Part shown: positions 31,553-63,600 of the stretch, in pieces | Numbering within the stretch: the first letter of the stretch is position 1 | How the letters are laid out: every line of letters begins with the position of its first letter | IMG/VR virus record: IMGVR_UViG_3300044971_004534 | Length of the DNA stretch: 64,000 bases | Direction: 5' to 3' (one strand) | DNA from: a virus | Program-made: the position numbers and the translations under genes | The notes under the pieces: generated by a model | Databases searched by the model: none | What the model saw: only the letters and a program-made list of their open reading frames with translations | Told to the model about the DNA's origin: nothing

Positions 31553-31556
31553 TTAG

Positions 31557-37041: not shown

Positions 37042-37222
37042 TCAAAAAATCAATTTACTTAAAAAGATAGCAGAGCTTAGACAGTCTATAGGTGGCAATA
37101 AGCCTGTTTCTGGTCCCACAAACGCCCCAAAACCCTCTACTCCAGCTGATCAAAAAACAAATAATAACACGAATAATGGATCAAGGGGTTGCGGTGCATG
37201 TTCTCGTAAAAAGAATTCATGA
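37025..37222 (+). CDS. hypothetical small protein
   Basis: 65 aa with a Pro/Asn-rich centre, ending in GCGACSRKKNS. Confidence 0.4.
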   Translation: MENMNNQKINLLKKIAELRQSIGGNKPVSGPTNAPKPSTPADQKTNNNTNNGSRGCGACSRKKNS

Positions 37223-38115
37223 TAGAAGATATAATAAGCGCTTTTAATTCAAAGCGAGATATTTTTGTATCCCCAGAAGATGCTGCTTCTATAATGGAGG
37301 CAGTTAGCCTTTTTATTGATAATGAGCATATAAAGGACAATAGGGTGGCTCGTTTGCCAGAACGCCTTTCTCAGGGCGATTTAGTGGGAGAGTACGTGTA
37401 TGTCCCATTAACTATTTTGGACGTATCAGTATCTTTGGCCATAGATCAGAAATTGTCAGGTCAAACAGTAATGGGGTCAACTCTTTCTAAAATATCTTCT
37501 TTGTCCAATACGGATATGCTATTGTGCAAAATTAATAGAAAAGATTTAGTGCATAAGGACTTTGGTACTGTATGTCTTCTTAATAAGGGTATCCCTAATT
37601 TTAGGGCCCGCTGTGAAAGCATAGTGGTAATGAACGATCATCCACTAGAAGAAATTACTAGATTTACAAAAAGCAAAGAATTTAATGTAGAAATTCTTAT
37701 AATGCGTGATGAAGAAAAATGGAGATATCATAAGTTTACTTTTGCTGGTCAAAATGGTAATATTAATGTAGAAGAAAAAAATGTTATGTCTGCACTTAAA
37801 AAGTATGCGCACCAAGTCCAAGAAGATTTTGAGTCACTTTCTCATGACCCACTAAAGGTGGCGCAAGCTTTAATTTCTGTAGACGTAAACAAAGAGGGGT
37901 TAAGCGAATTACTTAGATATATTGCGGGTGGAAACAAAATAGTTCATGTGGGCTCTAAGGTTGTAGCAAAGCCTACTAATTTGATGAAAAGCAAGTCTGT
38001 AGGTACAGTTGTAGGTAAATCAGCTAATGTTATTAACGTTAAATGGGATGCTGGTTTTATGAAATACAACTTAGATGATCCAAAAACATATTTTTTAATA
38101 GAGTTTGTTGACTAA
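37219..38115 (+). CDS. hypothetical protein, translationally coupled to the giant-gene block
   Basis: 298-aa ORF with an ATGA junction upstream and a TAATG junction to the 1946-aa gene. Confidence 0.55.
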   Translation: MIEDIISAFNSKRDIFVSPEDAASIMEAVSLFIDNEHIKDNRVARLPERLSQGDLVGEYVYVPLTILDVSVSLAIDQKLSGQTVMGSTLSKISSLSNTDMLLCKINRKDLVHKDFGTVCLLNKGIPNFRARCESIVVMNDHPLEEITRFTKSKEFNVEILIMRDEEKWRYHKFTFAGQNGNINVEEKNVMSALKKYAHQVQEDFESLSHDPLKVAQALISVDVNKEGLSELLRYIAGGNKIVHVGSKVVAKPTNLMKSKSVGTVVGKSANVINVKWDAGFMKYNLDDPKTYFLIEFVD

Positions 38116-41100
38116 TGAATAAGTCTTATAATGCATATGATACTGTAGCGATAGGTATAAGCCAGAACAAGGCTAAGGTGTACTATCAAAAGCTATTAAA
38201 AAATGGAGACAATCTAGAAATAGGTACTGCATTTTCAAGTTGTGAAAAAGTTGTTTTAGATATAAAGTCTTTAGTTAATGCTCAATATGCGCCTGATGGC
38301 AAAGCTACCAAAGAAAGTGTGCATTATTTACTTAATGAAGAAAATCCATTTGACATTATTATTCCATACAGTAACGCACCAAAAAATGCAAGACAAATTA
38401 AAGGCTACATATCTTACAGTAGAAGCAAAAATATAATAGAAATTAACACTAGGTCTATATTTAATAATGGATTTTTTAAATTTAATTTAAAACTTAATTT
38501 TACATCAGATGGAATTACTCGTGGTAAAGTGGTGAAGCAAAAGCCAGTTATGGAGATTACTCCAACAAAAGTGGCAGAAAATCTATTTGACGGATTAAAT
38601 TTAAGGGTTGATAAAAAAGGTGCAAAAGATGATGCTTTAGTTATTGATGAATTCAAAAGGTTCTCTCAAAACAGATTGATAAATTTTTCTGCTCAAGATG
38701 AATACTTTGGATGCGACAGGTACAATGTTCAATACTCTGGATCTGGCGAATTCGTTTTTGATGATGAGGTAAACTTAAAAAATGTGATTATCAAAAACAA
38801 GGCTACTGTTTCTGTTCCATCTGGCTTTCCATTAATATCGGTTATTGACAGAGCCGAAAGTCCTGTTTTAGAAAATGGATTGTTTTACAGAAGGAACAGT
38901 CCTCAATTAGACAGTTCCGTTGTGCACAAACAGTATTTTGACTCTAATGGGGTAGCTTTTTACGATCAGGTAATTACTAGAGGTCTTAAGTCAGCAAGTG
39001 GTGGAGGCGGAAGAAATCATCCTCTTATACACGTCAGAAACATATTTAATTCTGTTGGTAATTATGAAGATGTTCCAATTTTGCATTTTAGAAGAGAATA
39101 TGCAGAAAAAGAAGACAATAAAAATGGCAAAGCGCCATATCACTTTTATTTTTGTCCAAAATATGTTCTTCCCAGTGAGTCTCTTGCTAGTCCTATTGAG
39201 ATGAGAGTAAAGCAATCCGCATTAAATCGTATTGAATTTTCTTTTTCAATTGGTGAAAGATCATTAAATAAAATAGTTTTAAACAGTAAAACTACTGTTT
39301 ATTCTGATGCTGGAAATAAATTCTATTATGGTTCATTAGAGATTGATGTAACTAATGCTACGCAAAATATAAGACTTCCTTATGGTCGATCTAAAGTATT
39401 TTATTCAGATACAATATCAAGTACTCCATTAACTGATCCAGAATATGGATTAACAATCATGGATGTTCTGCATGCTTTGCAAAATAATGTATCCGGCAAG
39501 GTAAATGTGCTAACGGTAGAAGGGACTGGAGGCGGAACTCATGCAGGATTTGTGCCTACTTTTTCTGAGATTGGTATTTTTTCTCCATCTCCAAATGATC
39601 CGGTAGTAGAGTTTATTGAAGGCCATGACTTTATGGGCTGTGCCATGATGCCTGCAGCGCGCATGTGGAATGGCAATGCTGATAATTCGTACCTTACTGC
39701 ATCTGCAGAAGAGTCTGTCGGCGTAACAATTGAAAAAGGAGCTAGATCTGGACGTATATACACAAGAGGACTGGCTCATCATGTTGATTTAGATAATTAT
39801 GTGGCAATTGCCCCATTGTGTAGAGCATTTACTACTCCATTTGTTCGCGGTGAAATTAAATCGTTTCAAAATCATCTTGAAGATGACGATTTTAAACCAA
39901 TTGAATCTGGAGGAAAAGGCTATAACCGATTCTACAAATACAACACTATAAAAAAGAGTATAGAGGTAATGGCTTTTGGTGAAAACTATTTTACCTCCAT
40001 ACTAAATTTGCCACCTAATGAGTCTGAAGCTATGCTGGTAGGTGGACCTGCAAGTAGATCTTTGGGCTTTGGCAAGCTGAGAAAGCTTGTTGGTGCTTCT
40101 CAAATTGGAGTTGCTTTTGATTTTTTAGGAAAAACATATAAAGATCAAAACGGATTTTTTGAAACTACTCCTGCATACATAATGTCTCACATAGGTTTTG
40201 GTGAGCCAAGTGCAATACAATCTGAAAATTTGGTTAAAAAACTTTCAGATTTTTCTGGTGGTTCCAATTTTATATCTTTGCAGTATAAAAATGCCAAAAT
40301 GTTTCCAGGCATAAGCTCTCACAGAGCTTCTGAATATGTGCCAAATCCCAAAAGATACGGAATTAATGCTTACGGAGAAGATATTAAAAATTTATACAAT
40401 GGCGGTATATTTTCTTCGCTTTACACTACTTCAGGTCTTGGTTCTCATATAGAAGTTGAAAACACTGCAGCAAATAAGGACTCTGCATACTACTCACTTT
40501 CTTTAGACCCATTTATATTTGATAATAATGCACTTTTGTGCTATGAGGGTGGTTCTGAATCTGAATCTCCTAAAAGAAGAATAGAGTTATCTCCATGCAT
40601 GAAGTGGATAGATAATGCTCCAGAAAAATCAAAAATTATTTGTGCTTTCTTAAGAAAAGAAATGATTGATTGGGGTAAGGATCGTGGCTGGTCTGCTGGC
40701 AAAACATTAAGCTTTAGTTTTTATTCTTATAGAAGAGATAAAAATACCAACGGAATATTGTCTATCACTGGAAGCGGAAACAAAGATGTGATTTCGTATT
40801 TAAACTATGATGTAGCTACAAAAAATATTTCTTATTCTGACAATTTAGGATCTAGTACTTTTATTGGCAATACGTTGCAGTCTTTTGTTGATGCTCATGC
40901 TTCTACTTTTAATGGTCTTTTAAGCATAGAGGCAAAGCCTGTAATAAGGGCAACTGATGTAATGCCTTATGAAGATTTTGTTTTCAATACTTCTATAACA
41001 AATATTCAAGGCAAAAGACCAGTTGTAGAAATTACATCAGAAGAGCCATACGCCTATCCATACAGTTCATATCCATATGGGGTTCAGTCAGAAAACCCTT

Positions 41101-43955
41101 ATGCTTCTTCATTGTTTAATTTTGTTAGTAATAATTTTTACTCCGAAAATATAGGAACTTTTGAGATACTTTCTAATCCATATAGCTCTTCCTATGATTA
41201 TCCTTATGATGCATACTACGCTGAACCTTATTACATTGAACCATACGTTAATCCATACGAGCCTGCTCCAAAAGTATTAGAAACTGGATTGTTGATGATC
41301 TATAGGAATACTGTTATTCCCAGTATAAAGTCTGGATTTAATTTGCAAATAGATATGATACAGCAGAATAAGTATCCAAGATCTTATAAATTTTACTTAA
41401 ATAATCCGAAGTATAATTCTTTAGATGATCTTATACATGATGTAAATGACAGACTTTCTGAGTTTGGCATTGTAGCAAATTCTTTAGTTGAAAATCCAAA
41501 AGCATATTCTACTAGCAGACTATTTGCTCAAGAGCCAAAAAAAATCGTAGAAGCTAATTATGTATTTAAGAAAGTTTACCCATTTGTAAGGCCGTCTAGT
41601 TTTTCTGCTACTACTACAGAATTACAAGCTGGTCCCTATGACGCTGTTTCAGATATTGTTATTAATGAATATGGCGCATTATTGGATGATAGCATGCTAT
41701 CAAGTGTTTCTGAAAATTCAGAATCGGTATTGGAGTTTACGCCTAACTATGATGTTGTTTCAAATCCATATTACGATATTTCATCTTTAGAAAATGCCTA
41801 CATAAGTCCATATGAATATCCTCAATTCCAGCAAACTTTTGCTGTTGAATCTTTTGGAAAATTACCGATTGTTGAAACTGAAATTATTACTCCAGAAATA
41901 GGAGCGGTAACTTTTGAAAGAATTAGGGTTTCTGAATCTAGTAAGGGCTCTATTGATATAGAATACGATACTTATGATTCTCAGTATTCACAACCTGACA
42001 ATATTAACATAGCGTTTGTGTCAAAATCTACAAATTATAGTGCAGCAAAAAATCAACAAATTTACACCAATAGACCAAGATATACTGTTGGTGCAAGTGA
42101 TTTAAAGGAAAATAGTATTGCTATTGCTTCATCAGTAATGGAAGACGAAAACAGATTTGTTGAATCATCTGATTTAATAAGCAATAATACGATAGATCAA
42201 GATTATTCAAACACAAGTTTTGTTCAAAAATCTCTACTATTACCACCAAATGTTGTCGCATTAGAGGTCGCATATGGTGGATATATATCTAATGGAGTTG
42301 TCAGCACAAATGTTGCTCCAAACACATATTTCTCTAATTATCAACAAAGCGGAATTGGAGATGTTCAGTTTAGAACTATTGATGCAGATTTTGCTTTAGT
42401 TCTTGTTCGTATAGCATATAATGATGGAAAATACGGACCAAATAATGCTGCTGCTGATGACATCGCTTCTATGATAAAAGCGACTGTAAACTATAATTCT
42501 CCTGTAGATCCTGAGTACGTGGTTGGAGAATTTGCTCCTGGAGACACAGTAGAAACTGTGGAATTTATAAATTCTGAAAATGTAACTGAAACCTATCTAG
42601 TATTCCCTATTATGTTAAAAATTCCACTTAAATCTACCGTAAGCTATGTAAACATAAATATGGAAAATGTTGGACTTTCTACATCTGTAAAAATTATAGA
42701 TGCTCCATCTGAACTTAATAACTTTGGGTTTTTGGCAATCAACAAAAATAATCCTAATTATGATATGAAGTCTTCTAAAGACGGCAGAACCTTTGGACTG
42801 GTGCTCGACAATTATGGATTCTGGGATATTTTGATTGCTCCAGAAGGTGTTCTTCAAACATCTGATGCTGGTGAATTTACTTTTAATGGAAGAGGTTATT
42901 CTAGGACGGTTGTTGATACAGATGATAGATTTGTTGCAGGAATAGGGACTCCTATTATAAATGATGTTGATAATGACATAACTGGATTTGACAAGTCCAT
43001 GATACCTGAATCTATTAGGAACAGCATAACTCTCATTCCAGTTCCTGGTTATCAACAAGTTTGGGTTTTGAGAATTGATCCTGCGGTAAAATCTTATCTT
43101 GTGGCAAGAAGAAAAGCTGCTGGGGGATTGAGTCAAGATGGGTGCTATGTTGATATTCCAATATATTTTCAGGCTAATATTACAGAAGCTTCAGGCACTT
43201 GCAATGTTAGAATATTTAATAATGTAAGCTGTGTTTTTGATTATAATTTCTGTGATTTTTTCTGGAATCTTGGCTCTCCACTTCAGCCACCTTCCGCATT
43301 TGTTATACAGGATTCTATAGAAGTAAATTTTATAGAATACATCAATTGTGATTCAGTTGCCAGAATCATAGAGGAAGATGGCATTCAAAAAGTTGAAATT
43401 ACAAGTTACTTCATAATGAACATTGACAAAATACCGATGCTTGACAACGGGACTTCTTTGTTGCTTATAAAGACAAATACTGCAGAAACTCAAGTAAGGG
43501 AAATATTTACCCCAAACAGTGACACAATAGGCCAGCTAAGGACGCCAACTGCCGTCAATCAACAAAGACCATGGGAATTTGACTGCAGTTTTATACCTGG
43601 TGTTGATAAGATTAACAAAACCACTTTGTACACAAATCCTCAAAATTATTTAGAATATACAATAGCAAGTGCTGAAATAGCAAGGGGCATCAATACTTTA
43701 AGCAGATTTATGCTTGTTCAGCCAAAAACAAAGTTCCCTTTATTCGATGAGTTTGGAATGAGTTCTGCAACAGAAAGAGTAATAGCAAGCATAGGATTTG
43801 TATTCAAAGACTGGAAGCCTTCTGCTACAGATTTTTGGCAAGATAGAATGATATTTGGTATAAAATTTGTAATTCCAACTGGGCAGACACAGCCTAATTT
43901 ATTACAAAATTTTTCGATAAGATTCTTATACAATGAAGATAGACGTTTATTATGA
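38115..43955 (+). CDS. giant protein 1 (1946 aa), putative virion fibre/surface protein
   Basis: Uninterrupted 5.8-kb ORF. Asn/Ser/Tyr-rich beta-type composition. Contains a Tyr/Pro-rich PY-repeat segment. No enzymatic motif recognised. ATGA junction to the next giant gene. Confidence 0.8.
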   Translation: MNKSYNAYDTVAIGISQNKAKVYYQKLLKNGDNLEIGTAFSSCEKVVLDIKSLVNAQYAPDGKATKESVHYLLNEENPFDIIIPYSNAPKNARQIKGYISYSRSKNIIEINTRSIFNNGFFKFNLKLNFTSDGITRGKVVKQKPVMEITPTKVAENLFDGLNLRVDKKGAKDDALVIDEFKRFSQNRLINFSAQDEYFGCDRYNVQYSGSGEFVFDDEVNLKNVIIKNKATVSVPSGFPLISVIDRAESPVLENGLFYRRNSPQLDSSVVHKQYFDSNGVAFYDQVITRGLKSASGGGGRNHPLIHVRNIFNSVGNYEDVPILHFRREYAEKEDNKNGKAPYHFYFCPKYVLPSESLASPIEMRVKQSALNRIEFSFSIGERSLNKIVLNSKTTVYSDAGNKFYYGSLEIDVTNATQNIRLPYGRSKVFYSDTISSTPLTDPEYGLTIMDVLHALQNNVSGKVNVLTVEGTGGGTHAGFVPTFSEIGIFSPSPNDPVVEFIEGHDFMGCAMMPAARMWNGNADNSYLTASAEESVGVTIEKGARSGRIYTRGLAHHVDLDNYVAIAPLCRAFTTPFVRGEIKSFQNHLEDDDFKPIESGGKGYNRFYKYNTIKKSIEVMAFGENYFTSILNLPPNESEAMLVGGPASRSLGFGKLRKLVGASQIGVAFDFLGKTYKDQNGFFETTPAYIMSHIGFGEPSAIQSENLVKKLSDFSGGSNFISLQYKNAKMFPGISSHRASEYVPNPKRYGINAYGEDIKNLYNGGIFSSLYTTSGLGSHIEVENTAANKDSAYYSLSLDPFIFDNNALLCYEGGSESESPKRRIELSPCMKWIDNAPEKSKIICAFLRKEMIDWGKDRGWSAGKTLSFSFYSYRRDKNTNGILSITGSGNKDVISYLNYDVATKNISYSDNLGSSTFIGNTLQSFVDAHASTFNGLLSIEAKPVIRATDVMPYEDFVFNTSITNIQGKRPVVEITSEEPYAYPYSSYPYGVQSENPYASSLFNFVSNNFYSENIGTFEILSNPYSSSYDYPYDAYYAEPYYIEPYVNPYEPAPKVLETGLLMIYRNTVIPSIKSGFNLQIDMIQQNKYPRSYKFYLNNPKYNSLDDLIHDVNDRLSEFGIVANSLVENPKAYSTSRLFAQEPKKIVEANYVFKKVYPFVRPSSFSATTTELQAGPYDAVSDIVINEYGALLDDSMLSSVSENSESVLEFTPNYDVVSNPYYDISSLENAYISPYEYPQFQQTFAVESFGKLPIVETEIITPEIGAVTFERIRVSESSKGSIDIEYDTYDSQYSQPDNINIAFVSKSTNYSAAKNQQIYTNRPRYTVGASDLKENSIAIASSVMEDENRFVESSDLISNNTIDQDYSNTSFVQKSLLLPPNVVALEVAYGGYISNGVVSTNVAPNTYFSNYQQSGIGDVQFRTIDADFALVLVRIAYNDGKYGPNNAAADDIASMIKATVNYNSPVDPEYVVGEFAPGDTVETVEFINSENVTETYLVFPIMLKIPLKSTVSYVNINMENVGLSTSVKIIDAPSELNNFGFLAINKNNPNYDMKSSKDGRTFGLVLDNYGFWDILIAPEGVLQTSDAGEFTFNGRGYSRTVVDTDDRFVAGIGTPIINDVDNDITGFDKSMIPESIRNSITLIPVPGYQQVWVLRIDPAVKSYLVARRKAAGGLSQDGCYVDIPIYFQANITEASGTCNVRIFNNVSCVFDYNFCDFFWNLGSPLQPPSAFVIQDSIEVNFIEYINCDSVARIIEEDGIQKVEITSYFIMNIDKIPMLDNGTSLLLIKTNTAETQVREIFTPNSDTIGQLRTPTAVNQQRPWEFDCSFIPGVDKINKTTLYTNPQNYLEYTIASAEIARGINTLSRFMLVQPKTKFPLFDEFGMSSATERVIASIGFVFKDWKPSATDFWQDRMIFGIKFVIPTGQTQPNLLQNFSIRFLYNEDRRLL

Positions 43956-46900
43956 TAAAGATTAGAAAAATCATATATTGGCATTTTGCTGTTTATGGTG
44001 GAGATGCCGAAACAATAGATCCAGAAAACTTGCCAAGTGATTCCATATCTACTCTTGATATGGGATTGAACGAGGCCAATCCCATTATAGTCAATGGTGC
44101 TCCTAACGTAAGAGCCTTTTCTGTTTCTACTGGGTATGAGTGGCTTATTGACATTTTTGTTCAAGACGGCCAGACTAAAGATCTTAATGATGAAAACAAA
44201 AGAACTACTATTCGCTCTAATAATCCAGTGGCTTCTCCTGGATTTGTTTGGTTTGACTTGGCAGTTGTTGAGCTAAAGGCTGTTTTCGGAAATCCAATTG
44301 TTGTTGAGTCTTTAGAGCAGTTAAGTCTTGTTAAAGATGACAATAATGATGGAGTAAGAATACCAGTTAAGTACATGCTGTTCGGAGCTCATAAAGAGGG
44401 CGAGACGGGTGCTCAGCTGAGAAATGAGCCAGATGCATTCTTTGACGCCACAAACATACCTAATGAAGTTAGTTCAGAGGGAGATCAAGGTCATCAAGAG
44501 TTTGTAGAAGCAATTTCTTCAAAAACATTTGTAGACGAAGATGGAGTGCCTAATAGTTTTTTCATAAACATTAAACATCAAGAAGAAGTGACAAAAATTG
44601 GTTGCTGCAACATAGATGTGTCAGAAAGTTCTTCTTCTAGTTCTTCAGCAGATTCCAGTTCTTCCTCATCTGAAGATGGCGCTTCTTCTTCTAGTAGCAG
44701 TAGTAGTACTGACACTGGATCAGAGTCTTGTCCTTCTGGTTTAACTCTCAGGTCTCAACCTGTTATGCATGACGGGAATAGAAGAGTCTGGGCAGTCAGG
44801 CAAACTGCTGATATTCATATTAGCAATAATCCAGTTTATGAAGGTAATTTTTTCGCAGACTCTGGTGTATTGGTTAGAAAAAATTATATAGCATCTGAAT
44901 TGGTATATGCAGACGTTGAAAACGTTTTAAATGGCAACAGTTCTTGGAATTCCACTCATTGGCAGCACGCTGGATATATATCTTTTAGAGAAAATAAACC
45001 ATATGCAATGGGCCTTCATCAAGATCCAGTGTTCAATAAAACAGATTTAAGCTACAGCTCTGGTAATTTGTGTGCTTATCATGCATATGACGATAATTTT
45101 GAATTGCCAGTCACGATACAGTCAATTACTTGGGATACTCGTGGTTATTTATGGGCTTTATGCAGTGGAGGTGCAAAAGATGCTACCCCAGACAGTGGTA
45201 CAACTGTCAGTGGAGTTCAAAGTACTGAGGGTGTTTATGCACTGATACCTGGTGGATGGAAAAAGCAGCCAGCTGACATAATTTATTTTGGAGGCTCAAA
45301 TACTGGCAATACTTTTGAGTACGAAGATCTTAATTCTTCTGCTTTAGTTCTTGCAAGTTTACATATGCGCTGGGGATGTGATCGTAGCAAGAGTAAAGAT
45401 TTCTTAGCTATTGTTGACAATGATTTTCACATTCATATTAAAAAGAATGCTAATTCCAATATAAATTTCCCAGAAGAGCAAAATATAAGAAATGACAACG
45501 GTCTATTGTTGCTTGCAGACAACATATACGCTGGCGTAGAAAAAATATGCGTTGTTGAAGCTGGTACCACTCTGCCATATTTGATATCTTATAGTCAGCT
45601 TGATACTGATTTGAGTAGTTTAATTGCTACTGAGAGAGCAAATAACGTTCGTTATTCTATATTGGCATGTGGTGTAGATTTTATTGTTGGCGTAAGCCAG
45701 AGTAGTCAAATTAAAGTTTTTGTAAATTCGTCAGCAACAAATGTTCCAACACAGGATGACGCTGACGAATTACAGTCTTCTATTAGTACTGATATTACTG
45801 ATGGGTACTCTATAAAGAAAGTTGTTTGTGGTGATTCTTTCTTTGCAGTATATCTCAAGAAAACTTCAGGTGAGTCTAAGTTGTATGCAAGAGGCTATAT
45901 TAAAGATATTAAAATATGGGACGGATCTAATTATGACGCTAATTTTATTAGACCACAATCTTGGGATTTAAGTGAAACTAAGCCAATACTAGATGTTGAG
46001 GCATTTGGAGATTATTTGATTATTGCTTACGCAGAGGGTTTACCATCCGCATCACCCAAGTCTTTGTATTATGAAGTTGCAACAGTGCTTGATGATATTC
46101 CATTACACAATACTGGCTCTGCATCTAGTGCAGCGACATCAAAAATATTGAATTATGAGGTCTTAAATCAATTAAGAAAAATATACATCGATAATGCATC
46201 TAATGACGTTGATAGTTATATAACAAGTTCCAATATTAATCATTTACTTCCATCTAAGGGATTACTTGGTTATAGAAAATTTGAAAATGTAAATAGTGCA
46301 TATGGAAATCTTTTTATACATGAAAATTCAGAGTACTTACATCATCCGTATTTTAGCCAGTCAGGAAGCTTTATTCCAGGAAAGATGGAAGTCAAGTCTG
46401 GCATGTTCGGATACGATATAAGTTCTTTTGGTTGGAATGGCGTTACTTACTTAGCAGTCTCTGCACCCACGGAAGGCCCAGTGTTAAGTGCGCAGAATGG
46501 CGGAGTGCTAGGTCAGCAAGATGGCAAACACGGCAGAGGCGCAGTTTACATATTTAAACGATATGAAAACGGATTTAAGCTTATACAAAAGATACAGCAT
46601 TCAGACACAAGTGTTATAGCTTTTGGAAAACAAGTATGTCTTTATGCAACAAAGAACGCTTCAGACGAAGACGCAATGGCTTTAATATGCTCTTACCGAG
46701 GCAATACTTCTGATTATACCAGAATCTATTATTGGAATTCTGTAGAAGAACTTTTTGAGTGGTCTGAAATGACCGATAGCTTTATTCAGGTTAACCAGTT
46801 GACGCTTTCTCCGTCTACAAGTGATATAAAAATTATTGAGATCAAGAGGATATCAGACCACAATATATCAGTTACATCTTTTGTAAATAATGCAATTGAA

Positions 46901-55747: not shown

Positions 55748-58700
55748 TGATTAGGAACCCATTTGAAACCACGCAATATGCGTCTAATTTCTTAAAAGAA
55801 AACATTATACTTGATTCTTCTGGAATAGGACTGACAGGTATAGATGTTTTAATGGAATTTCTTGTTAATCAAACAAGAATACGTCAAGAAGCTATAAGAA
55901 TAGGCTATATATCCAACAATCCATCTAGAATAGATGGAGAAGATTATAGCCAAGTAAGTTTGCTTGGCTTGTCTTTTGATACCCCTCAAAATATATATGA
56001 TGGCTCTTTACTTATAGTGAGCGCAATAAAGCAGATGTTTTCTGGGCATCCATCTGAACTTTATGAAAAACTTGCTTATAGACCAACTATTATACAATAT
56101 CAAGATCCAGACGATGGAGTGTATGTTAGTAGAACTGGTGGATTTTTTCATAAAATTGTGGACCCTAGTTCTGATGTTGAGCAGCCAAATGATGACTATT
56201 TTGAATTCTTTGACGATCCAGAATTTGTTGATGGTCAATATCTTACAAGTGGAGACATAGACAGATTTAATAGTCCGCCATCTTTTACTGATCCTTCAAA
56301 TCCTTACGCTACATTAAATGAATATTTGAAAGATCAAGTTAAATGGGTTAACAGCACAATCGCTATATTAAATAAGTTAAAATATATCCATAAAAAATTA
56401 GTTTTTACTTATCCATTTGCTGGAATATCTTTTGGAAGTGGCTGCTCATTTGCAAAAAATATTAGTTCTACCACTACTCCAGATTCGAACGGAAAGCCTG
56501 TAGAAATTATACTTGACATGTCTGAGGTGGTAGCTTCTTGTGTTGACGGTACTGATTCCTATGGGTATCTTTGCATTAGGTGGCGTAGTGTCGGCAACGG
56601 TTCACGTTTTATTGTCATGCCCACCGTGGGTGCGACAGCTGCACAGACAGCGGCTCTTCGTCAGCCAATATGGGGCGCATTGACAGTTAACCCAGCTTCA
56701 GATCAGCCTTATGTTCATAGTAATTCTGGTAATCAAGGATATTTGAACAGTGCTAACTACATTTCTTATGCTTCTTCTGAAGGTATATTGAAGACTTGGG
56801 ACCCAGAAACTAATACTGTTTTCGATAGGCCAGTTTCTCCTATTCTGAGATCTGGTTGTCAAAATGCTCCGTGCTGTACAACAAACGATAATACCAATAA
56901 CATTCCATTTAGAGAAGGTGGCAATGACGTAAACTCTGATTTTGCATGTATAAATATTAATAATACTTTCTTCTCTACTGGAACTGGTTCTGACTGGGAT
57001 AATAAAATAAGAATAGTGATATTTTCTGGATGCCAGAGTGCTAGCTCCAATACTTCCTGGGAGCTTGAGCTTAATTGTCTTGGCTGCACAGATTGCAATG
57101 TGACTTTGACTGAATGCGGAGGCATTCCTTCATCAAGTTCAAGTTCTGAAGACATTAATTTTGGCATATTTATTCTAGATGATAGTAATAAAATAGGAAA
57201 AATAGATGTAATAACCGGCAATTTATCTGGTAGAATTCTTACTGTCAAAGATGATGCAGGCAATCCACTGGAAGATAATCTGCATGACATTGATTTTGAT
57301 ACTGACGGCAACCTGTATGGTCTTGCGCAATCTGGAATTTTATACGTTATCAGCAAGTCAACAGGTAAAGCAACAGTTGTGGGGAATACTGGACTAACAA
57401 ATACAAACGGTCTTGGATTTGGTCAAGACGGCAGACTTTACACTATAAATAATACAACTCTTTATTATTTAAACAAGCAAAATGCTGGTACGAATCAAGT
57501 GGGAAGTATTGGCTATACTGGAAGCGGTGATATATGTACTTCAAGATCTGGCCCCAATAGACTAATAGTTTCTGCAAAAAATGGAAATAATAATTTTATC
57601 CTTGAATTATCTGTTGGTGCAAATAGCGTAACATCTCAAGTAAAACTTAGTGGATCAAGAGTTGTTCCAAGAGTTTTTGGTTTAGCTAGACCACTTTCTC
57701 TTTCTGCAGGCCCACTTGCTGTTGCTGATCAGAAAATATATGTTTTTAATAGATTTGATACTTCAGATGCTTCTATGACTGTTGTTTCCGATTTTTCTCA
57801 GTCTGGTCTTTGCTGTGCGGTTGGCGCAGCTTACTGGAACGGAAATTTTGAAAATGACGAAGGTGGCGGTGGAGGCGGCAACTTTGATTTTCCACAGTGT
57901 GACAATATACCAGTATGGACTGTAGGTAGAGATAATGTTCTTAAGCAGGTTAATATTAAAAACGGGGACTCTCTTAAGTCTTATACACTGCAGGGTGCGA
58001 CATTTGATAGCTTCTATGGATGTCCAACCGATTTAGCGGTAAATGATTCTGGCGACATATATCTAATAGATAACTCTAATCTTTATAGAGTGCTACTGCC
58101 CTTTGTTGACGCTCCTGTGCAAGACGTTGCTACCGCTATTCTAATTGGACGTTTATTAGAAGGTAGTTCCGCAGTAGCTTTTGCCGGTTTAACGTTTGGC
58201 AAAGACGGGATCTTATATGGATGTATGGTTGAAGGGGTTACAAACCCTATTTCTACGATTCCAGCATATCCACTATTCAAAATAGATCCTCAAACTGCAG
58301 AATGCACTGCTGTTTGCACAGACATGGGTGTTGGTTGTCAGGGTGATGTTGCTCCATGGACCGACGCGAATGGTGTAAACTGGTTTTATTTAGTTGGCGC
58401 TAATGAGGATCATAACCAGATATACAGGTTTAGATATGGTGGAGAGGGAGACTGCGGTGAACTTGAGCTTATTTCAGACCCAGACACTTTCCAGTATGGA
58501 ACAGACGTTTTTAGCATTTCCAATGCTCGTGATAATAAAATTTATGTTATAGCTGGAACCCAGGTTCTTAAGATAGACCCGATCACTAATACCATTACGG
58601 AAACTGGAGTGAGTATTAGTGGATCTCATAGTCATGGTTCTGGTTGGCTTCCTAATGATGTGCTTGCAGACGGTTGCTCTGACAACTCCTCTAGCTCAAG

Positions 58701-61700
58701 TTCATCTGGTGAAAATTCATCTTCAAGCTCTTCTTCAAGTGAAGATATTGCGCCATGTCCTTGCGTGCCCCAGTCTTCAAGTAGTTCAAGTTCAAGTTCA
58801 AGTTCAAGCAGTGAGATTTCTTCATCCTCTTCTAGTTCAAGCTCCTCAAGTTCAAGTTCTTCTAGTGCTTCATGCCCAGATTGTGGAGATAGTCCGTCTA
58901 TTATTATAGACAGGGATGATTGGCTAAGTGGTATAGTTAATTGCCATAAAGTTGGATTTGATTCTGGATCAGTCATAAGGATAAAATGGTTTCAAGTTTG
59001 TTCTCTTTGCTGCACTTGTCCTACAGAAAGACAGTTCACAAGAGAATGTGAAATCGAAATAAGCATATTTGATATTGATTGTCAGAGTTGGTCTGCAATT
59101 TGGCAATATCTTATTAGTACAGGACAAGTAGAAGAAATTAGATGCAGCGTAGATGGTGGTTCTTGCAGATTTTATTATAGAGTAGATTTTGACAGAGATC
59201 CAGATTTGCCAAATATATTTTATTGGAGATTTACAGAAAACTTCCAAACATTTTTCCCAGATTATCCTGCCAATTGCGAATGTCCTCCATGTGATCCAGA
59301 TCCATCATGCTGTGACTCGTCTTGCTTTGGCTTAGGCACCATGATAAAAATGGCAGATGGTAGTGAGAAAAGAATTGAAGACATTAAGGAAGGTGATATT
59401 CTTTTAGCAGCTTATTTCAACGAGTTTGGAGTTGCCAGAAATCCTACTTTAGAGCAAATAAACAGTGGTTGGACTTTAAGCGACTCTAGATATATCAGGT
59501 TCGCTGAAACCAGAGTAAAGAGCATAAAGGTTGGATCTGAGCTTTCTATATATAAATTTTCTGATTCATTAAAGCTTACTTTTGAACATCCTGTATTTAT
59601 AATGGATGTAGACGGCACTTTAAAATTTAGAAGTGCTGTGTATATGCAAGATGGCGTTTATGGATATGACGTAAATCTTGAAATGATTCCGATGAGATAT
59701 TTTGAAGAAATAAATAGAAAATCAATCACTATTACTCTCACAACTGAACCTTTCCATTGCATATTTGCAGGAAATATATTAGTGCACACTGGTTCTTCAG
59801 GTAATTACACAAATACAGTTGGTTTTGGTGAAATAGGCATTAATATAAATACTGATATTTATACAGATCCAGTCTCTCCAGCCACATCTGTTATTGACGA
59901 TGGCTCTACTGGTTACAGTTTTATTTCAGACGGATTAGGCACAGTAAATCCAGGGACTGGTGGTCCAATTGACGACAGTGGAGTAATTGTAGACAGCCCT
60001 TATGTTTGTCAATTTGCTTGCAGATGTTTAAGCGGAAATTGCAGCACAGTTAGTTTCGTAAGTTCCTGGAAGCTTGGAACGCCTATACAGTTCTGCGCAG
60101 ATCCTACGGCGTGCTGTAATAATGGAAGTTGTACAAGAGGTAATGCAGACTGTAAAGACGTATCTGACAACTCCGTATTGATTGAAAGAACTATAGTCGC
60201 CAATAGTTGTGCTGATGCTTGTAGAAAATGTGCTGCTCTTGCTACGCAAAGTGTTGATTTTGTAAACAGCCCTTCTTTTGAATGCGCAAACGCTTCACTG
60301 ATATGTACATCATCGGGTTCATCTTCATCTTCCGTTTCTGCTTCGTCTTCAAGTAGTAGCTCCGAAATAACTGGTGAAGAGGTTGTTTTGTGGCTGAATC
60401 CTCCAATGGCTGCAGTTGACGTTGGCAATGGACTTATGTCAGTTTCTGGTGCTCCTACTGCTCATTTATTAAGTAACGGCAATGATGGGCAAATGTTGGC
60501 TCAAAGATTTGCTGTACCAGACAATTGTCAATGGCGTGTTTATAAATTTAGAATGTGGGGCGGTAGCGAATACGTGGACGAGCCTGTTGGTGGAGCGGGT
60601 GGCAACAGCTTGTCAAGTAATATACAAGCTATAAGAATAAACATCTTTAAGTTCCAGGCATCTTCTGGTAATTGGGAGTTGTATAATTCTACTACTGGTT
60701 ATTTAAAAATGGCTTCAGGTTTGATTTTAAATGATCAGGGAAGCACTATGGGCATATTTGGATCTAAGCATTTTCAAATTGACATGGAGTTTAATCCATC
60801 TGTTTCTACTATTTTGGACAGTGGGGATTATTTGCTTGGTATTGGTGGCGTGCATTCTTTGACTGGCCCTACCGCTCCAGAAAAACTTCTGTGGACATAT
60901 AGTGAGTTTGGGACTGCAACCAGCCCTGGGCAATACTCGACTACCAATTTAAACTGGGGAAATTGGGTTGATAGCAATCAGAACACAAGTTTAGCAGCTG
61001 CTCTCATAGGAATAAGAAGTTCAACATGCGTAGTGTCAAGCTCTTCAAGCTCTTCCGGCTTGGGATCTCAATCTTCTAGTTCTTCTTCTGATTTGTCGAG
61101 TTCATCTTCTAGTTCTTCCTCCGTAGGTGCTTGTACGCAATCTTTTGGTCATTGGAACAATAGCAGTGGAACTCCAGTATACTCTGAAATTATTGATTTA
61201 TCTGGATTTGAAGTACAAACCGATACATCTGGAGAGTTTATTGACGTGTGTGTTGAATATATGACTGGCTCAGATATTTCTGACAGAATTCTAATAATAG
61301 CAACAAAAGACGATGATGAGGTTAGTACTGATGAATTCTTAAGAAATGGGGATATAGACTATTCTTACTACGCAAATATTGATAATTACATAAATGGTCA
61401 GGAGAGTAGGTTCTCTATTTCCTCAGGACATCCATTAATCGCCTACAACGGCTCCTCTTTTGCGCCACCATTGCGATCATTGATATTTGATAGCGGTTGT
61501 GCTTTAACTGGAGACACAAATTCCACAGTTACTTCTATAAGGCTTAGAAAAAATTCTGTGTCATTAGACCCAACTGATCCAATGTATAAAAAGTTCCGAT
61601 TGGTTGTATTCGGAGTTTGTGATGTAGCTTTTGCTCCAAATAGTATTACAAATTGGTGGATTACATTTAAGTGTGATATTGCAAATTGCGTTGTAACTTC

Positions 61701-63600
61701 ATCAAGCAGTTCATCTTCGTCTTCTTCTAGTTCTGTTCTGTCTAGCTCTAGTTCATCCAGTAGCTCTTCAGTCTGCACTAAAATATGGTCTGGACCAGGA
61801 TGTCCAGATGTCAATAATGATGGATTTGTAGATTCTCTTGATCTTGGACTTTTAAATGGTATCTGGGGTGCTGTTGATTATGACAATAGAATATCCGTAG
61901 CGTCAGATTTAAATGGAGATGGCTTTATAGACGGGCAAGATATGATTATTCTATTAAGTAACGGTGGATGTATAGAATGTCCTAATTTTCAATGGCCCAT
62001 TTCTTCATCTAGTTCCAGTAGTTCCAGTAGTTCCAGTAGTTCCAGTAGTTCCAGTAGTTCCAGTTCTTCTATACCCTCCGGTCCTCCGCTGCCGTATTAT
62101 GGCTCAAACAAATTTGGTAGATTCATGGTAGATGCAAGAGATGGTAAAAACATAGTTGACATTATGTATATAGGACAAGATGCTAACTATTGGGTTCCTG
62201 CCTTAAATAGAGGTTTTAATTTACTTAATGTAAAAGCTTTTGGTACACCGTTTGCTCCCGCCTTGATGTCTACATCATTTGATGTTGTAAGTAATGTTGC
62301 TCATCTTTCTGCGGATTGGGATGCTGGATCAAATGCTAGATCAAGTGAAGTTGGCACTCTAAAAATTTTCAAAGGTGGTAGTCTTTTTGCCGGAGACGCG
62401 ATACATGAAGCCATGCATACATCTGTTACTCCATATGGAAAAGCTTTGGAGTGGGGGTATGTTCCAAAGATAGATGGTGAGTACTTCATAGAGTATGCTT
62501 CAGGAATGTATATATCAAATGGACCACCAAGCTTGGGCATCCCTATAGATAGCGTTTCAAAACTGGAGTACAGAGTTTTAAGAGTATCTGGTTATACAGG
62601 AAGTTACTCCATGTCTGTGGACACTTATGATGCAAGTAGAAATTATGCTGTATTGCCAGTAGTCAGTAATCAATCAAGTGACCTGATATGGGTAAGTGAC
62701 AGTTTGGAATTTATGTATAATCCATTAGTTCATGGAGTAGAAGGCTTGCGTTTTGCATGTACTGGAAGTGAAAATTTAGGACTCACTTCTGGAATAAGCG
62801 GAGACTTTGGAGTTGGATTGCATAGTTTGCACAAGAATGAAATAAGCGGTCTCGCGATTACTCCATTCCACACGTATGGTCAGGCAACATTTGAGTCATT
62901 AAATTCCGATCTTAATAGACCTGAAACCATTTTTACTTTAGAAACTTATCTAAACGCGATAAATGAAAGATCTGTGTCTGCTTACAGTAAGCTGCCAGGA
63001 GCAGAAGGCGGCTCAGGAAGAATGGTATTCTTCATACAAGCCAATTCGTCTTCTGAATCAACTATGATTAATGACATCATATCGATTAAAGATAAAATTA
63101 CTGCTACATGTTTAGGTTTAGGTTTTGATGAAAACAACTTTACATTCGCCATTATGATACCAGCTCCTATAAGTGAATTCGACTTAGAGTTTGTCAGTCT
63201 TCGTCAAAGCATTGCTGATGCAATACTTGCTCAAAGTAGCTCAATCGCAAATATATCTTTCATAAACATTCCAGCTATTTTCTCTTATACGCAAATGATA
63301 GAAAATGGCTGGGCAACAATTGCGATCACGCCAGTCGAAGAAAATCCAACAAGTCAATTTGCTTTACTGACAGGAGGACAGTGCTGTGAGACTTATACTA
63401 ATTGCTGCCCGAGCGTGCCAGTTTGCACAGGCGGTACTTGCACTTATGTAAGATGCTGGAATTGCTCAGAAGACGCTCCTGGCTTCGGCGTGTGCGGAGT
63501 GGTCATGTCAACAGATCCAGACACAGGAGGAAGTTCTTCAGATACATCTGGTGGAGGCAGTAGCAGCTCTTCTAGTAGTGAAAAAAATCCATTTATTTAA
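55747..63600 (+). CDS. giant protein 3 (2617 aa): beta-propellers, poly-Ser linkers, Hint domain, Cys-rich modules, dockerin, C-terminal domain
   Basis: Uninterrupted 7.9-kb ORF with a TAATG junction to giant protein 2. Domain evidence is listed separately. Confidence 0.85.
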   Translation: MIRNPFETTQYASNFLKENIILDSSGIGLTGIDVLMEFLVNQTRIRQEAIRIGYISNNPSRIDGEDYSQVSLLGLSFDTPQNIYDGSLLIVSAIKQMFSGHPSELYEKLAYRPTIIQYQDPDDGVYVSRTGGFFHKIVDPSSDVEQPNDDYFEFFDDPEFVDGQYLTSGDIDRFNSPPSFTDPSNPYATLNEYLKDQVKWVNSTIAILNKLKYIHKKLVFTYPFAGISFGSGCSFAKNISSTTTPDSNGKPVEIILDMSEVVASCVDGTDSYGYLCIRWRSVGNGSRFIVMPTVGATAAQTAALRQPIWGALTVNPASDQPYVHSNSGNQGYLNSANYISYASSEGILKTWDPETNTVFDRPVSPILRSGCQNAPCCTTNDNTNNIPFREGGNDVNSDFACININNTFFSTGTGSDWDNKIRIVIFSGCQSASSNTSWELELNCLGCTDCNVTLTECGGIPSSSSSSEDINFGIFILDDSNKIGKIDVITGNLSGRILTVKDDAGNPLEDNLHDIDFDTDGNLYGLAQSGILYVISKSTGKATVVGNTGLTNTNGLGFGQDGRLYTINNTTLYYLNKQNAGTNQVGSIGYTGSGDICTSRSGPNRLIVSAKNGNNNFILELSVGANSVTSQVKLSGSRVVPRVFGLARPLSLSAGPLAVADQKIYVFNRFDTSDASMTVVSDFSQSGLCCAVGAAYWNGNFENDEGGGGGGNFDFPQCDNIPVWTVGRDNVLKQVNIKNGDSLKSYTLQGATFDSFYGCPTDLAVNDSGDIYLIDNSNLYRVLLPFVDAPVQDVATAILIGRLLEGSSAVAFAGLTFGKDGILYGCMVEGVTNPISTIPAYPLFKIDPQTAECTAVCTDMGVGCQGDVAPWTDANGVNWFYLVGANEDHNQIYRFRYGGEGDCGELELISDPDTFQYGTDVFSISNARDNKIYVIAGTQVLKIDPITNTITETGVSISGSHSHGSGWLPNDVLADGCSDNSSSSSSSGENSSSSSSSSEDIAPCPCVPQSSSSSSSSSSSSSEISSSSSSSSSSSSSSSSASCPDCGDSPSIIIDRDDWLSGIVNCHKVGFDSGSVIRIKWFQVCSLCCTCPTERQFTRECEIEISIFDIDCQSWSAIWQYLISTGQVEEIRCSVDGGSCRFYYRVDFDRDPDLPNIFYWRFTENFQTFFPDYPANCECPPCDPDPSCCDSSCFGLGTMIKMADGSEKRIEDIKEGDILLAAYFNEFGVARNPTLEQINSGWTLSDSRYIRFAETRVKSIKVGSELSIYKFSDSLKLTFEHPVFIMDVDGTLKFRSAVYMQDGVYGYDVNLEMIPMRYFEEINRKSITITLTTEPFHCIFAGNILVHTGSSGNYTNTVGFGEIGININTDIYTDPVSPATSVIDDGSTGYSFISDGLGTVNPGTGGPIDDSGVIVDSPYVCQFACRCLSGNCSTVSFVSSWKLGTPIQFCADPTACCNNGSCTRGNADCKDVSDNSVLIERTIVANSCADACRKCAALATQSVDFVNSPSFECANASLICTSSGSSSSSVSASSSSSSSEITGEEVVLWLNPPMAAVDVGNGLMSVSGAPTAHLLSNGNDGQMLAQRFAVPDNCQWRVYKFRMWGGSEYVDEPVGGAGGNSLSSNIQAIRINIFKFQASSGNWELYNSTTGYLKMASGLILNDQGSTMGIFGSKHFQIDMEFNPSVSTILDSGDYLLGIGGVHSLTGPTAPEKLLWTYSEFGTATSPGQYSTTNLNWGNWVDSNQNTSLAAALIGIRSSTCVVSSSSSSSGLGSQSSSSSSDLSSSSSSSSSVGACTQSFGHWNNSSGTPVYSEIIDLSGFEVQTDTSGEFIDVCVEYMTGSDISDRILIIATKDDDEVSTDEFLRNGDIDYSYYANIDNYINGQESRFSISSGHPLIAYNGSSFAPPLRSLIFDSGCALTGDTNSTVTSIRLRKNSVSLDPTDPMYKKFRLVVFGVCDVAFAPNSITNWWITFKCDIANCVVTSSSSSSSSSSSSVLSSSSSSSSSSVCTKIWSGPGCPDVNNDGFVDSLDLGLLNGIWGAVDYDNRISVASDLNGDGFIDGQDMIILLSNGGCIECPNFQWPISSSSSSSSSSSSSSSSSSSSSSSIPSGPPLPYYGSNKFGRFMVDARDGKNIVDIMYIGQDANYWVPALNRGFNLLNVKAFGTPFAPALMSTSFDVVSNVAHLSADWDAGSNARSSEVGTLKIFKGGSLFAGDAIHEAMHTSVTPYGKALEWGYVPKIDGEYFIEYASGMYISNGPPSLGIPIDSVSKLEYRVLRVSGYTGSYSMSVDTYDASRNYAVLPVVSNQSSDLIWVSDSLEFMYNPLVHGVEGLRFACTGSENLGLTSGISGDFGVGLHSLHKNEISGLAITPFHTYGQATFESLNSDLNRPETIFTLETYLNAINERSVSAYSKLPGAEGGSGRMVFFIQANSSSESTMINDIISIKDKITATCLGLGFDENNFTFAIMIPAPISEFDLEFVSLRQSIADAILAQSSSIANISFINIPAIFSYTQMIENGWATIAITPVEENPTSQFALLTGGQCCETYTNCCPSVPVCTGGTCTYVRCWNCSEDAPGFGVCGVVMSTDPDTGGSSSDTSGGGSSSSSSSEKNPFI
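57150..58650 (+). other. two NHL/YVTN-like beta-propeller regions in giant protein 3
   Basis: Repeated blades such as DIDFDTDGNLYGLAQSGILYVISKSTGK, GLGFGQDGRLYTINNTTLYYLN, DLAVNDSGDIYLIDNSNLYRV, GLTFGKDGILYGC and NKIYVIAGTQVLKIDPITN. They are separated by a Gly run (EGGGGGGN). Confidence 0.55.
58783..58806 (+). repeat. (AGTTCA)x4 hexanucleotide tandem repeat inside a poly-Ser tract
   Basis: Perfect agttca agttca agttca agttca within the 58.68-58.87 kb Ser-coding region. Confidence 0.85.
59323..59790 (+). other. Hint (Hedgehog/intein-like, BIL-type) domain within giant protein 3
   Basis: Block A: CFGLGTMIKMADGSEKRIEDIKEGDILL. Block B TxxH: LKLTFEHPVF. Blocks F/G: FHCIFAGNILVHT. The domain ends HT followed by Gly, not the HN+Cys/Ser/Thr expected of splicing inteins. 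Confidence 0.75.
61801..61970 (+). other. dockerin (type I-like) module in giant protein 3
   Basis: Two 22-residue Ca-binding loop-helix segments, DVNNDGFVDSLDLGLLNGIWGA and DLNGDGFIDGQDMIILLSNGG, separated by a 10-residue linker. Poly-Ser linkers flank both sides. Confidence 0.75.
62011..62064 (+). repeat. perfect (AGTTCCAGT)x6 tandem repeat encoding poly-Ser
   Basis: Six identical 9-nt units counted directly in the sequence. The repeat is in frame. Confidence 0.95.

Follow-up and report, generated by a model that had tools for sequence, protein, structure and literature searches.

Receptor-binding fibres and spikes of the T4, T5, CBA120 and G7C-type systems combine a conserved attachment N-terminus with exchangeable distal modules. 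Giant bacterial adhesins and cellulosomal proteins are built from Ser/Thr-rich linkers, dockerins, propellers and Ig-like repeats. Some jumbo phages are 'hairy', with appendages for which genes are unassigned (PMC5259590). MoxR/vWA(-metallopeptidase) pairs are encoded by jumbo phages and the archaeal virus ATV, and MoxR–vWA has been proposed as a virion-assembly chaperone (Iyer et al. 2021, PMC7824862). Here we analyse a block of three giant genes and a leader gene in a 64,000-nt stretch (the window) of IMG/VR virus record IMGVR_UViG_3300044971_004534, whose source is a 161,456-bp JGI contig of a freshwater phage. The genes are named after the amino acid lengths of their products (leader g298, then g1946, g3931 and g2617), and the compared contig loci carry the labels L007, L008, L009 (the source contig), L011, L013, L016, L018, L022, L023, L025, L028, L030 and L031. 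The giant genes are real, conserved and confined to viruses. The block appears to correspond to a cassette that is conserved in huge-phage contigs of 134–499 kb and is here enlarged roughly four-fold in a lineage-specific way, and the reading we favour, with confidence near the midpoint, is that it encodes a virion-attached, long and flexible appendage that binds host-surface glycans.

Direct re-reading of the sequence recovered the four open reading frames (ORFs) exactly as predicted, with zero bases between genes (junctions gacTAATGaat at 38115, ttATGAtaa at 43952 and caTAATGatt at 55747). They occupy 41% of the window, close to the 40% originally estimated, and 15.8% of the source contig. 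Local base composition gives a stop chance of 0.071 per codon, that is, one expected per ~14 codons; the chance of a stop-free frame is P = 1e-62 for g1946, 1e-126 for g3931 and 1e-84 for g2617, and the remaining two forward frames of each gene contain 150–421 stops. Several JGI and SRA samples contain independent contigs that encode an identical 298-aa leader, at least 15 in all, and an identical g2617 is found on five contigs, while full-length orthologues of the block genes elsewhere are 32–88% identical, with the giants collinear. The concern that the ORFs might be assembly or annotation artefacts, through chimeric contigs or repeat-fused frames, does draw on a real effect, as poly-Ser runs break assemblies and the L016 contig stops within one. 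However, identical proteins on many independent contigs and samples, full-length collinear orthologues and open frames with P < 1e-60 refute it and make an artefact practically negligible. The end of the L016 contig (~16240–16772) falls inside more than 170 consecutive Ser codons of a g2617 orthologue, so that such genes are likely truncated or missed in short-read metagenome assemblies. The third-codon-position GC (GC3) of the giants is 0.22–0.26, the same as that of the replication genes in the window, and the giants are therefore native to this genome. The original prediction had also described the genes as translationally coupled. Overlaps do exist; however, overlapping start/stop junctions are the rule in this genome (26 of 42 adjacent gene pairs) and the overlap chain runs upstream past the leader, so coupling, which we infer from overlaps of 1 and 4 nt, would not be special to this block. 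Scans for sigma-70 promoters and terminators around the block returned either no excess over shuffled sequence or sites within coding sequence.

The same flanking genes (epimerase, RuvC-like and 209-aa protein) and the same order of homologous domains recur in the 134–499 kb contigs. In these, an epimerase, a RuvC-like resolvase, small genes and a homologue of the 209-aa protein (corresponding to 34168–37222 in the window) precede a protein of ~900 aa with a PolyA_pol(+HD) domain, which occupies the position of g298 and whose last ~70 aa match the leader C-terminus. A g1946-family protein of ~1,350 aa (1,311–1,418 aa) follows at the position of g1946, then a protein of 612–1,128 aa ending in a VWA domain at that of g3931, and one or two proteins of 331–627 aa, which open with the g2617 N-terminal domain (E 1e-9 to 1e-11) and of which several end in a Hint domain, at that of g2617. 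A DUF6734+GT2 glycosyltransferase comes after the cassette; its counterpart was not found in the window. Sizes of roughly 900 + 1,350 + 630 + 330–630 aa in the cassette thus compare with 298 + 1,946 + 3,931 + 2,617 aa here. In L022, the last position is taken by two tandem small paralogues with a common g2617-type N-terminal domain. Glycosyltransferases also flank the small cassette in huge phages. The PolyA_pol(+HD) gene of ~890–918 aa before the g1946-family member lies at L013 7324–9996, L018 7337–9991, L022 4915–7638 and L028 4825–7527. Other genes near the cassette in huge-phage contigs include a TROVE/Ro60 + vWA gene and an IS605-type TnpB (OrfB) element (L018 23640–24251; L013 1697–2905).

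Divergence rises along the block from leader and g1946 through g3931 to g2617. Compared with L007/L008, identity is 64–66% for the clamp loader, 72–76% for the sigma factor and 66–68% for the RuvC-like protein, versus 46–54% for the leader, 44–50% for g1946 and 32–37% for g3931. Compared with a 224-kb relative, core genes are 79–84% identical, the leader 80%, g1946 75% (86% in its C-terminal domain), g3931 64% and g2617, which is still collinear, 57–68%. A conserved N-terminus, exchangeable distal modules and evolution faster than that of core genes together read, by analogy with the systems named above, as the signature of particle-attached receptor-binding proteins.

The proteins are modular and adhesin-like in domain content and for most of their length unlike anything known, as originally proposed. 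PHROGs returned no match for the giants, Pfam almost nothing across the block proteins apart from the modules named below, and the PDB no related sequence, profiles of g1946, g3931 and the g2617 N-terminus yielding only a poly-Ser artefact. With tblastn against 50,697 phage records, g1946 and g3931 had no match and g2617 matched only through its Hint domain. PHROGs, phage tblastn and PDB searches gave no homology to tail fibres, spikes or baseplates, and Foldseek gave generic matches only. The protein families are themselves new and restricted to viruses. The searchable literature yielded no description of the genes; a 2025 'moraphage' paper treats large freshwater phages, perhaps of another lineage, with core glycosyltransferases and no giant genes. 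Paralogy among the giants and internal repeats were also considered and rejected, since BLASTP found neither and hhalign shows no relationship between the N-terminal profiles of g3931 and g2617 (probability 1.6%).

Of the three giants, g1946 is the best conserved, with 12 full-length homologues at 42–100% identity. Its C-terminal domain defines the family: an exhaustive HMMER profile search of 1.84e9 protein representatives returned 40 clusters, which include a second group of 1,265–1,456-aa huge-phage proteins that have only this domain in common with g1946, at ~30% identity. A scan of 185,579 species-representative cellular genomes in GTDB found none. The domain occurs on nine IMG/VR contigs, seven of them phage contigs of 27–499 kb from the distant group, and a metagenome scan gave one locus only. 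AlphaFold2 modelling with 31 diverse sequences reached pLDDT 83 and pTM 0.52; it replaced an earlier run on 12 close sequences (pLDDT 60), for which the fold search was uninformative. Foldseek searches of the PDB and BFVD with the newer model returned only generic tandem Ig-like arrays at TM 0.1–0.2, including RET cadherin-like domains, pilins, titin, phage tail and virion proteins and herpesvirus gC, with no enzyme fold among the matches. The family-defining C-terminus is accordingly predicted by the model to be a chain of beta-sandwiches and no enzyme. A virion RNA polymerase of the crAss/N4 type was rejected as a candidate: the sole DxDxD-like motif in g1946, DVDND, is not conserved (only D1621 is invariant), and the region around it models as beta-sandwiches. 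A tape-measure protein was likewise rejected, as both composition and the AlphaFold2 model are beta-rich rather than helical.

The leader is a conserved partner of the block, with orthologues 46–54% (L007/L008) and 80% (224-kb relative) identical. The ~900-aa PolyA_pol-domain protein ends in a homologue of the leader's C-terminal ~70 aa (nt 37894–38112; E 6e-10 to L028 4825–7527). The middle giant, g3931, has collinear orthologues at 32–40% and 64% identity. Propellers had been predicted for the giants, and in g3931 a blade-like regular expression finds three FG-GAP-like matches versus 0.07 in shuffled sequences, with no Pfam match at E <= 0.01; the L007 orthologue has a weak WD40_RLD match. 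A homologue search with the C-terminal half of g3931 returned three fragments only. Its N-terminal domain matches the VWA-bearing small-cassette gene weakly (hhalign E 2.7e-4, probability 42%); the two occupy the same cassette position and have WH...SPG[FY]...IGCC motifs in common, which suggests that g3931 descends from the VWA-bearing gene.

The distal giant, g2617, is also the most variable and consists of seven modules parted by poly-Ser linkers. The runs use 5–6 different Ser codons, which indicates selection on the protein sequence rather than slippage. The N-terminal domain, a candidate attachment domain, is kept where distal modules differ, and in huge phages it opens small proteins of 305–627 aa: it is 57% identical in L016 (461 aa) and 23–27% identical (E 1e-6 to 1e-11) to proteins of L018, L022, L023 and L025, with no PDB relative in a profile search. 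The predicted propeller seems to be present in g2617, the module scanned alone scoring 33.0 bits for Tachylectin versus a gathering score of 29.8, a match that covers only profile positions 81–163 of 230 and overlaps weaker DUF5074, DUF4394 and NHL matches. It is not in the recovered part of the L016 orthologue. The dockerin scores 26.4 to 32.0 bits for Dockerin_1 versus a gathering score of 22.9 and has two canonical Ca-binding loops, DVNNDGFVDSLD and DLNGDGFIDGQD (duplicated F-hand); it is a genuine type I dockerin. The dockerin, the Hint domain, the Ser linkers and the Cys-rich stretches named in the original prediction were each confirmed by Pfam or profile scores or by composition. Comparison across related genomes uncovered module shuffling. 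In L016, the module order is rearranged after the N-terminal 461 aa, and in L011, from the 224-kb relative, g2617 is collinear at 57–68% identity, with an extra dockerin. This dockerin-like copy (L011 ~17794–17985, aa 1772–1835 of the 2,671-aa orthologue) is a small case of module duplication. A homologue search with the whole of g2617 gave 8,000 candidates, none significant, presumably because poly-Ser words swamped it.

The Hint domain of g2617 is a genuine member of the HINT superfamily, of the bacterial-intein-like (BIL)/Hedgehog class and not an intein. A profile of four sequences (window, L011, L016 and gp110 of Erwinia phage pEa_SNUABM_2) had as its best PDB match the solved 'bacterial intein-like domain' 2LWY, in an alignment that spans both halves (E 1.2e-9). 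By itself, the window copy does not reach the Pfam gathering scores; its cassette orthologue in L023 passes PT-HINT (30.9 versus 27.7 bits), and relatives match PT-HINT at 4e-6 to 4e-7. The first residue, Cys1 (Cys1193), is invariant in all four copies, as are T, E, H and P of the block B T-x-x-H motif, which reads L-T-F-E-H-P. With BIL/Hedgehog-type Hint domains such as 2LWY it shares Cys1, the T-x-x-H of block B, a hydrophobic-V-H near the C-terminus and a length of ~156 aa. In contrast to them, the g2617 copy ends in His-Thr/Ser followed by Gly rather than in His-Asn plus a nucleophile (VHT then Gly in the window and L011, VHS then Gly in L016; only gp110 has VHN then T), and it is internal to a 2,617-aa phage protein, bracketed by Cys-rich stretches. 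It has the residues for an N-S acyl shift, which could lead to cleavage or ligation, and not those for splicing; a splicing intein was rejected because the window copy has neither the C-terminal His-Asn nor the +1 nucleophile.

The only cultured-phage relatives of this Hint domain found by tblastn are the gp110-type C-termini of Erwinia jumbo phages. gp110 of pEa_SNUABM_2 is a 480-aa protein, annotated as a virion structural protein (PHROG 38766), which is encoded in a tail-fibre cluster and is ~30% identical in its C-terminus. The Hint is homologous in the two proteins, and small-cassette proteins likewise carry it at or near the C-terminus; in contrast, nothing else is common to g2617 and gp110, and gp110 itself has the canonical HN then T ending. 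The L023 Hint protein matches phrog_38766, 'virion structural protein', at E 4e-18, and PHROG 38766 is filed under 'head and packaging'.

The phage encodes a nonulosonic-acid (sialic-acid-like sugar) cassette, complete in appearance, 13 kb upstream of the giants. It is conserved and collinear in L030 (11856–17037) and L031 (3544–8697), the genomes being the giant-bearing 224-kb relative and a more distant one. Pfam scores are 177 bits for NeuB and 54.8 bits for CTP_transf_3; the two PF01973 matches, at 28.7 and 21.3 bits, are sub-threshold (gathering score 34.6), and a profile of the Maf-like genes did not recover a Maf structure from the PDB. In the two genomes, identity of the second PF01973-like gene reaches 86% and 69%, more than that of the helicase beside it (79% and 65%). 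Maf enzymes, of which PF01973 forms the catalytic domain, O-link nonulosonic acids to Ser/Thr of flagellin in the cytoplasm (bioRxiv 10.1101/2020.06.03.131540). As in Maf flagellin islands, NeuB, a CMP-transferase and PF01973-like genes lie in one conserved locus, and the candidate substrates are Ser-rich, filament-like and without a signal peptide. In contrast to those islands, PF01973 is sub-threshold, the cassette is 13 kb from the giants and there is no flagellin. By analogy, we hypothesise that the poly-Ser linkers of the giants may be glycosylation substrates.

Table 1. Features of the giant-gene block and its surroundings (positions in the window unless a contig locus is named).
Feature	Position	Strand	Description
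Nonulosonic-acid cassette	19518-24699	+	Two PF01973 (Maf/DUF115)-like genes, CMP-sugar cytidylyltransferase, NeuB, HAD phosphatase, GT1 glycosyltransferase
Epimerase/dehydratase	34168-35130	+	Conserved upstream neighbour in both phage groups
RuvC-like resolvase	35115-35693	+	Conserved upstream neighbour in both phage groups
209-aa CxxC protein	36412-37041	+	Long coiled-coil-like C-terminal half; constant upstream neighbour in both groups
Leader g298	37219-38115	+	298 aa
g1946	38115-43955	+	1,946 aa
g1946 conserved N-terminal part	38115-40994	+	~950 aa
g1946 variable middle	~40965-42221	+	Pro/Tyr-rich
g1946 family-defining C-terminal part	42222-43952	+	~570 aa; predicted chain of ~4 beta-sandwich domains
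g3931	43952-55747	+	3,931 aa
g3931 conserved N-terminal domain	43952-44626	+	225 aa; ends in invariant GCC
g3931 poly-Ser linker	44627-44710	+	
g3931 FG-GAP-like propeller blades	~46349-47971	+	Putative; motif matches
g3931 lineage-specific insertion	~50009-50848	+	
g3931 conserved C-terminal part	53249-55744	+	832 aa
g2617	55747-63600	+	2,617 aa
g2617 N-terminal domain	55747-57129	+	~460 aa
g2617 lectin-like beta-propeller	57148-58686	+	aa 468-980; putative, Tachylectin profile
g2617 poly-Ser linkers, then Cys-rich stretch before Hint	58687-59322	+	Cys conserved in L011
g2617 Hint domain	59323-59790	+	aa 1193-1348, ~156 aa; BIL class
g2617 second Cys-rich stretch, just past Hint	59944-60336	+	12 Cys in aa 1401-1500; conserved in L011 and L016
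g2617 type I dockerin	61807-61953	+	aa 2021-2069; Cys-flanked; Pfam Dockerin_1
g2617 C-terminal module	62071-63558	+	~500 aa; Cys-rich near end; without family match; 57% identity in L011
122-aa protein	63677-64000, on into L009 17931-18299		After the giants; one N-terminal hydrophobic segment and a coiled coil
MoxR AAA_3 ATPase and DUF2201_N protein	L009 18300-21208	reverse	562 aa and 404 aa; just past the window end

A phage replication region fills the first 37 kb of the window and holds a DnaB-like helicase, primase, UvsX-like recombinase, other helicases, clamp loader, sigma factor, sliding clamp and RuvC-like resolvase. A DnaE-like Pol III alpha is split in two overlapping ORFs (8126–9424 and 9417–11369), which align with a single PHROG profile, one with its N-terminal and the other with its central part. 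Among cultured phages, the polymerase has its best matches at only 32–34% identity, and megablast of the window returned nothing. The host is probably a low-GC bacterium of fresh water. The sigma factor (30782–31552, phrog_1740), at 72–76% identity in distant relatives the best-conserved gene of its neighbourhood, lies between clamp loader and sliding clamp (29650–32699), an arrangement that recalls clamp-coupled late transcription in T4. Directly upstream of the block, the 209-aa protein is 27–34% identical across the two phage groups and 80% in the close relative, with no family match. The 122-aa protein on the other side has a weak holin PHROG match (E 3.5e-4). Farther downstream, L009 21801–25863 encodes a dCMP deaminase and another sigma-70-like protein and gives weak matches to a SET domain and an M43 peptidase. 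No capsid or tail genes were recognisable within 37 kb upstream and 10 kb downstream of the block.

Taken together, these features lead us to favour, at roughly even confidence, a virion-attached appendage. The original description of long flexible fibres or decorations fits the predicted beta-sandwich chain, the divergence gradient and the module swaps; the other part of that interpretation, that the proteins could be exported host-surface effectors, was not supported, as none of the four block proteins has a signal-like or transmembrane segment. Sec-type export is therefore unlikely and release would need lysis. The case for a fibre comes from the beta-sandwich chain, the extracellular-type domains, the divergence gradient and a conserved N-terminus with swapped distal modules, and is weakly aided by the Hint relatives in a tail-fibre cluster and the MoxR pair next to the block. 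Domain-wise profile searches upheld the domain calls, while the fold search gave generic Ig-like arrays only. Modular receptor-binding fibres, tailspikes and Ig-like decorations likewise have conserved N-termini, swapped distal modules, tandem paralogues sharing an N-terminus, divergence faster than that of core genes, Ig-like beta-sandwich chains (predicted here for g1946) and lectin-like modules (putative here in g2617). In contrast to them, the block has no sequence or fold match to a known fibre, spike or baseplate and lies outside a structural cluster, its giants are 2–4 times the typical fibre size, and poly-Ser, dockerin and an internal Hint are unusual in fibres. The block also shares domain vocabulary and linker style with giant adhesins and cellulosomal proteins; unlike these, it is virus-encoded, has no signal peptide, sorting signal or secretion partner, and its defining domain has no homologue in the 185,579 cellular genomes.

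Most likely, the four block proteins cooperate as parts of a single structural module. Conservation declines from leader and g1946 through g3931 to g2617, an order that would mirror the proximal-to-distal order of a fibre, with leader and g1946 proximal, g3931 as the shaft and g2617 distal and host-facing on flexible poly-Ser tethers. The conserved N-termini would dock each subunit, and the lectin-like propeller and dockerin of g2617 may contact the host or the environment. The Hint domain could cleave the chain at Cys1193 and so mature the fibre, or turn the C-terminus of the upstream fragment into a thioester for covalent attachment. Lacking a signal peptide, the proteins would fold inside the cytoplasm and exit by lysis only. 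The adjacent MoxR/vWA-peptidase pair may aid assembly: as in the chaperone pairs of jumbo phages and ATV (PMC7824862), AAA_3 and DUF2201_N genes lie together, here directly downstream of the block, and a VWA protein is found at the g3931 position of the small cassette, although the pair is tied to the giants by adjacency only. The phage's own Maf-like/nonulosonic-acid cassette may O-glycosylate the poly-Ser linkers. We infer the virion location, the self-cleavage and the glycosylation of the giants, all three of which are to be read conditionally.

Several observations weigh against a virion-attached appendage. Hint excepted, the proteins have no detectable similarity to a characterised tail fibre, baseplate, decoration or other virion protein; Hint, the sole link to known virion proteins, is itself a mobile module, and the 'virion structural protein' labels are database annotations not traced to proteomics. 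The block sits inside a replication and nucleotide-metabolism region, in the overlap chain of the resolvase and not by structural genes, and in relatives it is adjoined by a PolyA_pol-type gene. Proteins that fold in the cytoplasm do not usually carry Cys-rich modules or a Ca-dependent dockerin, and no Pfam match to cohesin was found in the four block proteins. The beta-sandwich model covers ~7% of the 8,494 giant residues, and the homology of g3931 to the VWA gene is weak.

Some of these points would equally suit proteins that act off the particle. The giants might be non-virion extracellular binders, freed at lysis or shown after envelope damage, which could stick to polysaccharide, biofilm matrix or cohesin-bearing scaffolds, act as decoys or aggregate debris and cells for the next infection. 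Bacterial proteins that are secreted or sit on the cell surface typically have the kinds of module seen here (dockerin, lectin-like propeller, Cys-rich modules, Ser linkers), the block is outside a recognisable structural module, and nothing in it resembles known virion proteins. We nevertheless regard such binders as unlikely, since neither a signal peptide nor a membrane anchor is present, the family occurs only in viruses and is conserved vertically, in a fixed gene order, and the conserved N-terminus, variable distal modules and tandem paralogues sharing that N-terminus form the pattern of receptor-binding proteins. The same distal variability argues against an intracellular scaffold or compartment tied to replication or RNA metabolism, a role for which the genome gives several hints: the position in the replication region, the constant cassette neighbours RuvC-like resolvase and PolyA_pol/HD protein, the C-terminal domain that the leader shares with the latter type of protein, the VWA protein at the g3931 position in relatives and the adjoining MoxR gene. 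Gene position is a poor guide to function in many large phages, however, known intracellular phage scaffolds do not feature lectin-type propellers, dockerins, Cys-rich modules, poly-Ser linkers or rapid divergence by modules, and the conserved domain is predicted to be an Ig-like chain, so that we hold this role to be distinctly improbable.

Proteins carried inside the virion head or tail and ejected at infection into or through the host envelope, like crAss-like cargo or the N4 virion RNA polymerase, would be consistent with the 'head and packaging' category of PHROG 38766, and very large size and a lack of homologues also mark phage cargo proteins. But g1946 has no polymerase signature, its DxDxD-like motif not being conserved, the modelled part is a beta-sandwich chain, and dockerin, lectin propeller and distal module swapping point outward; we see little likelihood in internal cargo. 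Delivery in the manner of polymorphic toxins, with the g2617 Hint as a pre-toxin HINT freeing the downstream ~1,270 aa or tip, appears very improbable. The Hint relatives do match PT-HINT and the architecture is modular with a variable C-terminal part, yet no toxin domain was recognised, the next gene is not a small immunity-like gene and only the holin-like 122-aa gene, g2617 has no signal or transmembrane segment, and its C-terminal modules are collinear and 57% conserved between genomes. In the small cassette and the Erwinia phage, moreover, the protein stops with the Hint, beyond which nothing is left to free.

Returning to the virion-attached appendage, its fullest version would be an inflated fibre of ~8,500 residues with poly-Ser coated by Maf-transferred sugars and a Hint-derived thioester for cleavage or for covalent attachment to the particle or a host glycan. 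We consider this complete scheme rather unlikely; if true, it would be a self-glycosylating, self-ligating adhesion organelle without counterpart among characterised phages. The BIL-type Hint and the nonulosonic-acid/Maf-like cassette bring in two ideas not previously raised for phages: that a fibre may cleave or ligate itself autocatalytically, and that virion proteins may be O-glycosylated with sialic-acid-like sugars. Because assemblies break at poly-Ser linkers, metagenomes probably undercount such genes. The small cassette and the block form a natural series, from proteins of ~330–630 aa to those of 2,617–3,931 aa, which would show how phage proteins grow by the insertion of modules on poly-Ser linkers. 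Nearly 16% of this genome is spent on three virus-only proteins with families absent from Pfam, PHROGs, the PDB and cultured phages. If these proteins do form fibres of the virion, they would rank with the largest adhesion structures known from phages and would provide gene candidates for the 'hairy' appendages of jumbo phages (PMC5259590).

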